A stretch of 59,948 bases of DNA, filler included, from Globobulimina sp. (lineage: Eukaryota): NCBI GenBank assembly GCA_003354225.1. It is 10 parts of 10 records of this genome, joined end to end, with 100 filler letters (N's around TTAATTAATTAA, not from the genome) between each part and the next. Parts side by side here need not be neighbours in the genome. Positions count along the whole stretch, not along the records: positions 36,064 to 41,960 come from PIVH01000407.1; positions 42,061 to 47,957 come from PIVH01000408.1; 8 more parts are not named here. The stretch is one strand, 5' to 3'. A program made the position numbers and the translations under genes. Under the pieces are notes generated by a model. The model searched no databases. It was given only the letters and a program-made list of their open reading frames with translations, and was not told where the DNA came from. Shown in pieces: positions 36,064 to 42,389 of this stretch (position 1 is the first letter of the stretch; each line of letters begins with the position of its first letter).

Positions 36064-36182
36064 AACAATACATAGGATCTAAAATGTGCTAAAAAGCATA
36101 TATATGCTCAATAAAATAACCTGAGTCAAATGTACTATCAACCAATCTCAATGTCTGTCCCGTGTCATTACTAATACCAATC
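36064..36182 (+). repeat. 119-bp exact terminal direct repeat of contig 7 (second copy 41842-41960)
   Basis: AACAATACATAGGATC...TAATACCAATC is identical at both contig ends; period 5,778 bp. Confidence 0.97.
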
Positions 36183-36310
36183 GATAAATAACGAGTTTTC
36201 TTTGTTAATTTTTTTACACCCTTTAAGAACGCATCAATTGTTTTAACTGCCTCATCCTGTCTTCTGTCTGCAATTTTAGCCAATTCTGGAACCAATACTT
36301 GTTGTGCCAT
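36121..36310 (-). CDS. Actinoporin-like (cytolysin/lectin fold) protein, exon 1; continues across the contig junction
   Basis: MAQQVLVPELAKIADRRQDEAVKTIDAFLKGVKKLTKKTRYLSIGISNDTGQTLRLVDSTFDSG, then phase-1 donor TCAG|GTTATT at 36120 (equivalent to 41898). Confidence 0.75.
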
Positions 36311-36753
36311 ACAAACGTCAAGAAACGAAATGTAAGGTTTTTGTTTTTATATTGTGGAGTTGAGAGAAGGAGTTTTAATGAGAGGATTAGATGAAGTAAG
36401 TCAGGTTGAATGAAACTAAAGGTTTTTTATTGATGCAGTAGTTGCACTTTCTTCTCTTTTGTTCTGTTGATGATCGCAATTAATTCTTTGTCACAGATCA
36501 AGCAGCGACATGCTGCAGACATTATATTCCGTTGTAGCTTAAGAAATTATCGGATTTATACCATTCAAGTTTAATTTCCCAAATTAGATATGACTGTTTA
36601 ATTTCAAACATGTTTTAATTTCAAACATGTTTTGTTGAGAATCAATATAAGTTATTCTAAATATCTTGCAATTGACCGGTGCGGCAATGGACAGCTTATC
36701 AATGCTTCCGCAATATATTCGGCCATCGTCATTGATGAATTTTATGTTATTTA

Positions 36754-37650
36754 TCAACTGAACTTATCCAATGAATCTATATTTGTGCCATCCACTTTAA
36801 GCGATACGAGTAGTTTTTGTATTTGTTGCATCCAATTCTCATCCTCTTTGAATAAGAAATATTTCCCACACAGCTTCGAATTCGGATTTTTATTAGATAT
36901 CAATATCGGATATGTTCCAATTCCAAAATAGATAGCTTCCAATGCTTCAATTTCGAATTCATGATCGATATCAGTGAGCACAACACATTGCTGTTTGAAT
37001 ATTAATATTCTCGAACGAGATAGATATCGATTGTTCATACAACTGAATGGACGGCGCACACACAAACGCATTAAAATAGCCCCTTAAACCAATATCATTT
37101 AGAATTAAGTTATAAGTCTCTCGCGAATTAAGTCCTTATGCATTAAACACAGAGTCCACTTCAGATTTTCTCTCAGCTCTCTCAATAAAATGCGAATTCG
37201 AATGCCTTTTTTTAATTCAATTTTATGCATATTATCCTCAAAGAATTTGGTAATTAAACTTGTTTTGTTTTGTTGTATTTAGTTTGGTACATTCTGATAT
37301 GTTTAAATATTTTATCGATCCACCAAATCATCCTCGAGCTCGACAAAGGTGCATAGTGCCAATTCAGATACATCGATAATTATAAATTGAGTGAGACTGG
37401 TAACCAATGCATTATCTCTGTGAGTTTTGTTAATAATATATTTTAATTATAAGCTCCTGATCCAAGAGTCTTTCATGATTTCCTCGTAATTTTCAATCAG
37501 TGTATGCGTGAATATTAGCAAGTATCTCAATGGCTTATCTTCAGTGTGAGCCATGGCCAGTTTCTGCCGTTTGGTATCTGGTTCACCAAATCCAATCTCA
37601 TAGGCAACGTTTAATTTGTTGGAATTGGAACAGATCATTTTTACAATCAC
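36754..37650 (-). pseudogene. Degenerate coding-like fragments of unknown family
   Basis: Short protein-like ORFs (37447-37650, 36754-37071) separated by stop-interrupted sequence. Confidence 0.3.
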
Positions 37651-37669
37651 TTACAACCACTCATTATAA

Positions 37670-38874
37670 ACGGTCAACGCACCAAACATCAAAACATCAG
37701 CCACATTCTATACATATTGGTAATAAAAAAGAATTATTAATAACTGGTTACACTGAAAAATATTAATTTAAATTGCTCCAAATGGATTATTCCAAATGTA
37801 ATAATTGATTTATTTATGAAATATTTAATATGGTATTTATTATATATCATAATGACAATAATAAATTGGTGCTTTTTCCTAAAGATAGAAAAAGGAATTT
37901 TGGATTTTATTTATTAGATTATGTGACACAGAAACTTATTTATTACAAACCTGATTTTCTATGGGATGATAAGTGGCGTTATCAGTGTCAAACAGTTGCA
38001 TCTGACATTAAATGTAATCACAATATTAATTATTTAAATATAGATAAATATGATGTATGTAATGCATTATTTGTATGTGATACTACAGCAAAATATGAAT
38101 TAAAATATGAATTAATGTGTTTTATTTACCACATCTAAAGCAATACAAATATCATTGCCACGAATAACAAATATTTAAAGAGAGATACTTATCATTTCAG
38201 ATCTGTTTATTCCAAGGAAAGGAATCAATTAATTGTAGTATCTCAAGGTAAAATATCTATCTTTTCTTTGACTGAATGGAACTGGATTTCGAATTCTTTA
38301 ATTGAAAAAGAATATATTCGAATTCATTCCACTGATTTCATTCCAACAGATTATATCAAAGGAATTGCTTTAATTTAATGGATAACACATATAAATTATT
38401 TGTAGCATGTGCAAGAAAATACGGCTGTTTTATTTATGATTTAAATAATAATACACGACAAAACGTCCAATGGCCGAAGAAAGGATTTGGAGGAAATGTT
38501 GCAATTTGTTGTGATGATATATATATATTAAATCATATGATATATGTTTATAAAAAAGACAAAAAAAGAAGAATTAAAATTAAATGTATGATATTAACAC
38601 GAAGCAATGGGTTGTATGATTTGTATCTAACTTGAAAGGACAGAAAGGTGTCAAAGAACCAATAATGTGGCTACATAAAGATCAATTATGTATTGCTTCA
38701 TGTTCAACGAATTTAACTGTTAAATCGTCGAAAAGGGATCTCTCGGAACCTAAACATATCAATAATAATAATAATAATAATATAAATAGACGCAATATAT
38801 GGAAAAAATGGAATGATATCTTTTGGCTCAAAATTGTTAATTTTGCAGAAGACTTTTCAATGCTAAAATTGTAA
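37670..38874 (+). pseudogene. Fragmented gene, probably a beta-propeller/kelch-like protein
   Basis: Consecutive short plus-strand ORFs in shifting frames (ELLITGY..., KLFVAC...FIYDLNNNT, PIMW...LCIAS). Confidence 0.4.
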
Positions 38875-38904
38875 AAAAAAACGTTTAAGTGCAAGGATCA
38901 ATAT

Positions 38905-40029: not shown

Positions 40030-40593
40030 AATAATGTCGTTCGATTGCATGTGTTTATTTGTAGACTAAAAATGAATATTTATACATACGATGAGATCCG
40101 GATTTAATGTGTCTTTTAATAATTTAATTATTAAATTCCGATCGGAAATGCTGGATAAAATGTGTATATAATGTTCAGAACGAATGGCTGTCTTGATTGC
40201 TCCATTGAGATCGTTGTTTGATTTCGGAATTAATTTCTCTGTTTTGAATTTAAAGTGTTGAAGTAGTAAAAACTTTTCAAATCTCGACATGAACGCACAA
40301 GAAGCCAGAGTTGAAAAAAACATATCAATAATTGCAGTTAAGCTATTGTCTAAAAGTAGTATTTATGAATTGTTATTTTGGTATTTTATGTGAATATTGA
40401 TATAGTACATCTGAATATTTTGCAACCGGCAAATCCTAAAAAACGAAACCCGCAAAACGCGACCATACCCTTTTTGCGAATTTGTGAGAATGCAAAAATT
40501 GAGATAATATCATATCACACAAAAAATACCACCAATATCAACTATATGAATCATCGCACACTACACAGAACATCGAAAATACAAAATGCAACA

Positions 40594-41163
40594 ATGAATG
40601 GCGTGCAGCAGCAAACAACAATGGATGTGAATGATTCGTTTACTATTAATAAACCACAAACTGCAGTTAACTCTTCATTGAATGCCTACGCTTCAGTCTA
40701 TCATCCTGTTCCTGCATTAAATCAAAATAAAAGTAATCAATATGTTCCTCATCAAATTCAAATATCAGGATTTAATACAGCACCAAATACACAACAACAA
40801 CAATATTATTATCCACACAACCAATACCAATATGATTATTCGCATACGCATAAACCCTACGCTTCAGTCTATAATCCTGCGCATGCATTAAATCAAAGTA
40901 ATCAATATGTTTCTCATCAAATATCCGGATTTAATACAGCACCGAATGCACAACAACAACAACAATATTATTATTATCCACACAATCAATACCAATATGA
41001 TTATACACATACGCAACAAACAAATCCTTATCTCCCAACAAACGTAATACCATCAAGTCAGATGCATTGCCCTCAACATATACCCTCTTATCCGAGAAAT
41101 ATAGCTTATTATAAAAAAAATGGAACAGTTTACTATTGCACTTGCAAACAAATTTTTATATGA
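40594..41163 (+). CDS. Q/N/Y-rich low-complexity protein with PAM2-like motifs and an internal repeat
   Basis: SSLNAYASVYHP and KPYASVYNP resemble PAM2 (xxLNxxAxEFxP); repeated NQYVxHQISGFNTAPNxQQQQYYYPHNQYQYDY. Confidence 0.6.
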   Translation: MNGVQQQTTMDVNDSFTINKPQTAVNSSLNAYASVYHPVPALNQNKSNQYVPHQIQISGFNTAPNTQQQQYYYPHNQYQYDYSHTHKPYASVYNPAHALNQSNQYVSHQISGFNTAPNAQQQQQYYYYPHNQYQYDYTHTQQTNPYLPTNVIPSSQMHCPQHIPSYPRNIAYYKKNGTVYYCTCKQIFI

Positions 41164-41359
41164 AGGGATAGATTGCGTTTCTGGATTAAGTATGTATGAG
41201 ACGTGTGTGTGTGTACATGTTTTTAGATTTACTCATATGAATATGAGATGGAAACGTACAGGACGATCAAACCAAGCACAAAATAAAAAGGAAGCAACAG
41301 TAATAATGCCACAGCGTGCAAAAAAAACGAATTAAGTTAATAAGAAAGTTAATTATAAA

Positions 41360-41697
41360 TTATTTTGAGGCACCAGCTACAATAATAGTAACTCTTGTGT
41401 TTTTTGTTCGATGCCATTTTACAGCATATGCACTGTAATTATCTGTCCCAGGATTATCATTCATTTTTTTCCACGCCTGACTGCCCGCGTTCTTTTTATC
41501 CGACATGTAACATTTTGTTTTGTAGGAACCAGAATAAGGACTCGATAATCCAATACCTAAAAAACATCCGGTTCTGCCAATTTCAAATGTACAATGCATT
41601 GATACACCAGTCATAAAACCACCGTCCACATTACAAATACCAAATGCCTCTATTGAGCGAGTGCTAATTTCAGGATCTGGCTGATCCCAATATCTAC
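41360..41697 (-). CDS. Actinoporin-like protein, exon 2 (spliced product 175 aa)
   Basis: Acceptor TATAG|GT at 41698/41697 restores G-RYWDQPDPEISTRSIEAFGICNVDGGFMTGVSMHCTFEIGRTGCFLGIGLSSPYSGSYK...; 190+338=528 nt; intron 41898-41698 (201 nt). Confidence 0.75.
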
Positions 41698-41730
41698 CTA
41701 TATATATATATATATTTTAATTTAATTTAT

Positions 41731-41786
41731 TATTTTCAGTGATTTTCAGTGATGTTCAGTGATTTTCAGTGATGTTCTGTGATTTT
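41731..41786. repeat. 10-bp minisatellite (GATTTTCAGT, about 5.5 units) in the intron of the actinoporin-like gene
   Basis: Units at 41731, 41741, 41751, 41761, 41771 and a partial unit at 41781. Confidence 0.85.
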
Positions 41787-42389
41787 AGAAACGTATTATA
41801 AAACCAAAACAGTGATTTTCACGCATTTACGGTACAATTATAACAATACATAGGATCTAAAATGTGCTAAAAAGCATATATATGCTCAATAAAATAACCT
41901 GAGTCAAATGTACTATCAACCAATCTCAATGTCTGTCCCGTGTCATTACTAATACCAATCNNNNNNNNNNNNNNNNNNNNNNNNNNNNNNNNNNNNNNNN
42001 NNNNTTAATTAATTAANNNNNNNNNNNNNNNNNNNNNNNNNNNNNNNNNNNNNNNNNNNNTGTACTTCAAAAAACTTTTTGTAAAATTCCAAAATATAAA
42101 CTTGTGATTTTTTGGATTATTGTTGCTAATTTAATCATCAATTAATTTCGGAAACGAGTAGATTCAAACAGTTGTTGAAAAAAAAACAAAGTCATGAAAA
42201 AAAAATGTCATGAAAATATTTCAGAAAATTCAACATTGTTTTTCTAAATTCTATTTCTATACAAACTCCAACCATTATATTCGTGGTTTTATATGTTACA
42301 TCTTTGCACAATAAAAAATTTGAAATGGAAAATATTGTAATAAAACTCCTCTTTAATATTGACTTATTATTCATGGCCAAAATCTTAAA

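Follow-up and report, generated by a model that had tools for sequence, protein, structure and literature searches.

The loop contig and its terminal overlap

What does it mean when a contig of a foraminiferan genome begins and ends with the same sequence? The stretch of DNA analysed here (the window, 59,948 nucleotides of the Globobulimina sp. assembly GCA_003354225.1) consists of ten unrelated contigs of about 5.9 kb, separated by spacers of N and TTAATTAATTAA. One of them, the loop contig at 36064–41960 (no strand assigned), had been read in an earlier note as a circle or perfect tandem unit carrying a spliced, cytolysin-like gene across its junction. The locus raises two questions, namely where the biological join of the unit lies and which physical form of the DNA stands behind the loop. 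The loop is a real feature of a known sort of event, and its breakpoint is better defined than was first proposed: a host segment was probably joined head to tail and would exceed its flanks as an amplified circle or a high-copy array.

The first 119 nt of the contig (36064–36182, no strand assigned) are identical to its last 119 nt (41842–41960, likewise), as had been claimed, and removal of one copy leaves a unit of 5,778 nt, within one turn of which no 119-mer recurs. The terminal overlap of the other nine contigs is 0–1 nt, and the exact 119-nt overlap is thus confined to one contig of ten. It is composed of 57 nt of the intron and the last 62 nt of exon 1 of an actinoporin-like gene. The contig ends are the point at which the assembler opened a loop, not biological ends. 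The earlier note had taken 119 as a k value of MEGAHIT, and we infer that this program made the assembly; other assemblers, run with a custom k, could likewise leave 119 nt. Contig names with k119 do appear in print for MEGAHIT assemblies (PMC6784175), and terminal repeats of length k have been described as a mark of circles or concatemers among assembly contigs (PMC8008677). The statement that the overlap marks a cycle of host-type DNA in the assembly graph is upheld.

Two genes are cut at 39318/39319

The unit contains two copies, A and B, of a glutamine/asparagine-rich (Q/N) gene. Copy A (38952–39318, plus strand) has a premature stop at 39204–39206 and a frameshift, and its 3′-end is lost at 39318. 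Copy B (40594–41163, plus strand) is an open, low-complexity open reading frame (ORF) of 189 codons with an internal 165-nt duplication. Copy A is directly followed by a 5′-truncated histidine phosphatase gene (His_Phos_1; 39319–40029, plus strand) of 216 codons with a 60-nt intron at 39488–39547. The identity of the two Q/N copies is 46/50 nt over 39270–39319 (8–10 per 10-nt block) and 2–4 per 10 from 39320 onward, and the phosphatase homology begins at 39319 in all three full-length homologues tested. This stub starts at the His of the Arg-His-Gly (RHG) motif, equivalent to His44 of the 258-aa P0016; the first 43 residues of the phosphatase, including the Arg, were not found anywhere in the unit, nor was a separate 5′ exon. 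A PDB search with the ORF of the first phosphatase exon returned no match.

The join was made in DNA, because the stub keeps its 60-nt intron. The absence of stops and frameshifts from the 216 codons of the stub suggests that the join is recent; the simulated probability of a stop-free stub was 0.09 at 5% neutral divergence and 0.009 with an assumed indel rate. The position 39318/39319 (plus strand), where Q/N copy A passes out of frame into the phosphatase stub, is most likely the biological breakpoint of the unit, and what had been called chimeric debris contains it. When the unit is re-opened at 39319, the order becomes the 3′ part of the phosphatase, Q/N copy B, the actinoporin-like gene, debris, and the 5′ part of Q/N copy A. 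Both intact ORFs are then internal (unit positions 1276–1845 and 2042–2770), and the actinoporin-like gene is whole and keeps about 3 kb upstream. Since two cut genes stand at its ends, the re-opened unit resembles a chromosome segment joined end to end.

No direct repeat was found at the visible junction. The stub has a Cys for an invariant Gly, and the switch point may lie a few nt to the right of 39318/39319, within a short imperfect microhomology. The heptamer CACTGTG at 39319–39325 resembles a recombination signal sequence heptamer or a CACTA end; it also corresponds to the His-x-Glu codons of the phosphatase motif. Two other readings of this region were rejected. An intact phosphatase with Q/N copy A inside an intron fails, as the nearest AG gives Q-Y-H-C without the Arg and the unit has no 5′ exon, and an in-frame Q/N–phosphatase fusion protein fails, as copy A contains a stop and is not in the frame of the phosphatase. 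Between the Q/N copies five synonymous and seven non-synonymous changes were counted (ratio of non-synonymous to synonymous differences, pN/pS, 0.35; p = 0.074), which gives weak support for a protein-coding Q/N gene. Copy B and the actinoporin-like gene are convergent, with stops 196 nt apart (41163–41360).

What the loop implies in the assembly graph

The assembly was simulated as an idealised de Bruijn graph with k = 119. If the flanks of a tandem duplication are intact, the path breaks at the junction, and two pieces of 5,778 and 238 nt result instead of this contig. Without pruning, a 5,897-nt loop came solely from an isolated circle. When weak links were pruned at a ratio of 0.1, the loop was obtained from arrays of at least 10 copies or circles of at least 9 times the parent depth, and at a ratio of 0.2 from arrays of at least five copies or circles of at least five times that depth; two to three tandem copies never gave it. 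The junction would thus have to outweigh its flanks about 5–10-fold, unless the flanks are absent. A circle and a high-copy array are inseparable from sequence, because both give the same graph. A gene that lies across the contig ends is equally uninformative on this choice, because a loop can be opened anywhere, and its use as a sign of a circle has to be given up: the spanning gene is a by-product of the opening and favours the circle no more than the array. The three candidates named at the outset, a circle, a tandem amplicon and a rolling-circle product of whole-genome amplification, were all retained.

Host-type character of the unit and checks for mobile elements

The unit appears to be host chromosomal DNA, since it has spliceosomal introns, eukaryote-style homologues and a host-like dinucleotide signature; of all ten contigs, this one lies nearest to the average signature of the rest (delta* 29). 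In a Pfam search of 14 + 52 ORFs His_Phos_1 was the sole family above the cut-off, and neither these 66 ORFs nor a PHROGs search (0/15) revealed replicase, integrase or capsid families, as had been stated before. About 60% of the unit is debris. It includes broken short ORFs at 36750–37750 (minus strand), probably a decayed gene with no family and a weak coding signal, and four short ORFs in shifting frames at 37809–38874 (plus strand), probably another, with no family and a coding signal near zero; the debris ORFs score near zero in the codon model.

No plasmid or phage DNA matched the unit in the collections searched, which did not include viral and metagenome contigs, and a sigma-70 scan was at chance level (36 vs. 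39.9). Three CTRR|TC motifs are present on the circle, none of them with a Helitron-type hairpin (−1.0 to −2.8 kcal/mol), and RepHel was not found by Pfam among the ORFs of the unit. The best match resembling a terminal inverted repeat (TIR) at the junction was 8/14, and no TIR meeting there was seen among the 25 longest of 33 inverted repeats. Three NANTATTAC nonamers were examined as stem-loop origins, and each has only 4–5 of 13 flanking pairs. The readings as Helitron, TIR transposon (CACTA, Mutator-like element [MULE] or Transib) and satellite of circular Rep-encoding single-stranded (CRESS) DNA viruses were rejected, as hairpin, TIR and stem-loop nonamer are lacking.

The actinoporin-like gene across the contig ends

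Exon 1 of this minus-strand gene (36310–36121, 190 nt) encodes the amphipathic N-terminal helix and the first strands; it starts with ATG, has no stop and is directly followed by GT. Two AG candidates were present in the acceptor search region (41685–41730), and one of them yields an open frame, with an intron of 201 nt (41898–41698, minus strand), an exon 2 at 41697–41360 (minus strand) and 175 codons in total. The two-exon model also holds independently, because both exons align in order to homologue P0003 (residues 13–70 with exon 1 and 72–178 with exon 2), and the claimed GT–AG-spliced 175-aa gene is confirmed by frame and collinearity alike. The intron contains a 10-nt minisatellite of 5.5 copies (41732–41786) and a (TA)n run. 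Upstream of the gene, at 36597–36633, 17 nt are perfectly duplicated in tandem.

Neither exon matches Pfam, PF06369 included. Seven relatives of exon 2 were found by a full HMMER search and six more by profile, giving 13, of which two are named, both uncharacterised Plectus sambesii proteins. The relatives (P0001–P0013) share the signature F-D-S-G ... G-V-[ST]-G ... P-x-x-G-S-Y-K, below the Pfam cut-off, and three of the 14 family members match PF06369, also below it. The family profile matches FraC at an expectation value (E) of 2e-9 and Cry34Ab1 (4jox) at E 1.5e-9. The Atlas neighbours of P0003 are actinoporin, Nakanori and aegerolysin clusters. The P0003 model (predicted local distance difference test score, pLDDT, 80) matched FraC 3w9p at E 3e-9 with a template modelling (TM) score of 0.60, and the best core fit was to Cry34Ab1 (TM 0.84 on the target, root-mean-square deviation 2.0). 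The β-sandwich with two flanking helices is present in this homologue's model, which has a helix at 13–35; exon 2 folded alone, with no alignment, was uninformative (pLDDT 38).

With 175 aa and an isoelectric point (pI) of 9.35, the protein fits the size and charge used to define actinoporins (about 20 kDa, pI > 8.8; PMC8778704). Its N-terminal helix is amphipathic, with a moment of 0.65 (Eisenberg scale, residues 21–38) that was read without true actinoporins as calibration. Cnidarian actinoporins carry a secretion signal or propeptide; here a hydropathy check, made without a signal predictor, gave a weak hydrophobic stretch (maximum 1.51 on the Kyte–Doolittle scale over 10 aa). In place of the lipid-binding motif P-[WYF]-D the protein has P-Y-S at the column of FraC P-Y-D, exon 2 has four Cys where actinoporins are usually cysteine-free, and the identity to actinoporin structures is 16–22%. 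The family is thus actinoporin-like by profile and predicted fold, with a kinship to pore-forming proteins of sea anemones, and not strictly actinoporin, and "cytolysin-like" is justified at the level of fold and not at that of motifs. Cytolytic activity is unsupported by the predicted protein, because its lipid-binding motif is not that of true actinoporins; some actinoporin-like proteins are reported not to be lytic, as in a zebrafish case (PMC8778704).

Other searches with exon 2 added no relatives: a word-index homologue search kept neither of two candidates, the ESM Atlas gave no usable match, and none of 41 pattern matches in bacterial and archaeal genomes was confirmed. A tyrosine phosphatase match in the PDB sequence search was rejected as a chance "HC...GRTG" match. 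In a shallow literature search, neither "actinoporin-like" nor "aegerolysin" occurred among the matches listed. The 13 relatives mark a sparse, unnamed and undescribed actinoporin-like subfamily.

Explanations of the loop

The reading that we consider probable runs as follows. A stretch of 5,778 bp of a host chromosome would have been joined head to tail at 39318/39319, cutting the genes at both of its ends. The join, made without a long repeat and with a microhomology of a few nt at most, would be better explained by end-joining or template switching than by transposition. Among the DNA that was sequenced, the path through the junction would exceed the chromosomal flanks several-fold, and a de Bruijn assembler would have dropped the flanks, closed the unit and opened the loop at a chance k-mer within the actinoporin-like gene.

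Several points weigh against this reading. The stub differs at 13 of 106 columns that are invariant in the homologues, vs. 0–3.5% for five left-out homologues; this comparison is biased by the closer kinship of the homologues, and the differences are mostly conservative, but it still lends no support to a very young join. The fusion may predate the loop, and the real join could be hidden seamlessly in a repeat, for instance in Q/N copy A. The simulation was error-free, with a single k and uniform depth, and its pruning ratios of 0.1 and 0.2 are what we take to be MEGAHIT defaults. The tetranucleotide correlation of the contig with the others is the lowest of the ten (0.42; range 0.42–0.65). 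None of the nine other contigs matches the unit in tblastx, and the parent locus is not in the window. Finally, chimeras of multiple displacement amplification (MDA) are described as mostly inverted, not direct (bioRxiv 10.64898/2026.06.11.730069).

The likeliest physical form, to be held tentatively, is a small circle, either natural extrachromosomal circular DNA (eccDNA) or a product of phi29 template switching, which was concatemerised or inflated by whole-genome amplification, if the library was amplified. MDA favours circles below 10 kb, and in one test it over-amplified them 34-fold (PMC4130580); a template switch by phi29 can be enough by itself to set off rolling-circle amplification (PMC8617514). 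Somewhat unlikely when taken by itself is the other form of the same event, a chromosomal tandem array of at least 5–10 near-identical 5.8-kb units, by which the actinoporin-like and Q/N genes would be amplified heritably. It gave the same loop in simulation, and recent tandem duplications are reported to have enlarged the set of actinoporin-like genes in mussels (PMC9645577), but its many copies would have to be so alike that they collapse at k = 119, though some 60% of each is debris.

A low-copy linear locus is a weaker explanation, which we hold to be improbable. It would consist of two diverged tandem copies sharing, within the actinoporin-like gene, one identical run of exactly 119 nt, in which case the two exons would belong to different paralogues, or of a duplication whose flanks were lost by uneven amplification. 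A direct repeat of exactly 119 nt does give the exact overlap on a linear contig, and such a locus would also show the fusion at 39318/39319. Only one of six repeat lengths tried (119) works, however; this outcome was seen in no more than 1.8% of the two-copy duplications simulated, with the peak at 5% divergence, and at that divergence the stop-free stub has a probability of about 0.01–0.09.

It is more doubtful still that the unit is a natural high-copy episome, a circular amplicon of Leishmania type or a somatic amplification that raises the dosage of a pore-forming protein. Its topology fits the simulation, the actinoporin-like gene is retained with its upstream region, and a protist is known to form adaptive circular amplicons (PMC4028189). 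Against it, the visible junction has no direct repeat, unlike the Leishmania circles, no origin or maintenance gene was found in the unit, and the pore-forming activity is putative. The raised dosage of a toxin gene proposed before receives no support, because the loop topology speaks for excess in the sequencing library and not for dosage in the cell, and selection cannot be read from a single event. We regard as very unlikely the boldest version, in which a somatic, endoreplicating nucleus of the foraminiferan would excise high-copy, gene-sized circles from its chromosomes without flanking repeats and so boost an undescribed, leaderless protein intermediate between actinoporins and aegerolysins for prey lysis or defence. 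Least credible of all, and hardly worth entertaining, is a circular intermediate or concatemer of a non-autonomous mobile element (Helitron, Pack-MULE/CACTA or CRESS satellite) with captured gene fragments, for which the intron-bearing fragments and the CACTGTG after the junction would speak, while the Helitron, TIR and nonamer checks above tell against it and the heptamer is explained by the phosphatase codons.

Other features of the window

The remaining contigs carry long eukaryotic ORFs, among them tubulin, kinase, PARP, SAM and CAP-Gly proteins and the ORF2 of a long interspersed nuclear element (LINE). This LINE-type ORF2 (19664–23860, plus strand) is open over 1,398 aa, with endonuclease, reverse transcriptase and RNase H, and is preceded by more ORFs. 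Two CAP-Gly domains are fused to a Ras/Roc-like GTPase with long low-complexity inserts at 31108–33945 (minus strand), and a SAP domain, two ubiquitin-like domains and a PARP catalytic domain are fused at 34246–35961 (minus strand). At 43001–45811 two similar-looking ORFs stand head to head (44092 minus, 44078 plus), with no Pfam match and with a kinship judged by eye. A divergent, intron-split tubulin at 48596–50192 (minus strand), α-like by eye, is a possible taxon marker. Its divergence and the style of the genes are reminiscent of Foraminifera. An Rfam search across the whole window gave no match, and none of 10 window ORFs was found by exact look-up in the protein collection.

Comparison with known systems

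The actinoporin-like protein resembles actinoporins (FraC, EqtII, StnII, bryoporin; PF06369) in profile and fold match, length, pI and N-terminal amphipathic helix, and differs from them in the missing PF06369 match of either exon, the altered lipid-binding motif, the cysteines and the low identity. To Cry34Ab1 and the aegerolysins it is linked by an equal profile score and the best core fit, and it is set apart from them by the extra N-terminal helix; no Cry35 or MACPF-like partner gene was detected in the unit.

In its exact k-length overlap the contig is like the circular and concatemer contigs described in PMC8008677, and its content consists of eukaryotic host genes, not of phage or plasmid. 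Like the amplicons of Leishmania (PMC4028189), it is a protist segment about the size of a locus that recurs in head-to-tail order, and gene dosage could rise as a result. Those amplicons are described as forming at direct repeats via RAD51 and rising under selection, whereas here the junction that can be seen lies between unrelated genes and has no repeat; a seamless join within Q/N copy A may still underlie the loop. Gene-bearing circles in foraminifera were not reported among the matches listed in a shallow search of titles and abstract openings.

The loop itself most likely matters little, as eccDNA, arrays and amplification chemistry all yield such loops; the breakpoint 39318/39319 is a handle for telling the physical form of the unit. 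If the circle were natural and abundant, it would also give a way into the study of how genes are amplified somatically in a lineage in which endoreplication and chromatin loss are known. Circles of eccDNA from excised chromosomal regions are described as widespread, with sizes of 0.15–100 kb (PMC11606643). Unlike that of established eccDNA, the circularity of the unit is putative, and so is its abundance in the cell. It is nevertheless like gene-bearing eccDNA in its size, within this range, in its host DNA with introns, in its lack of replication genes, and in its one head-to-tail junction of segment ends, marked by the reciprocal truncation of two genes at the presumed breakpoint.

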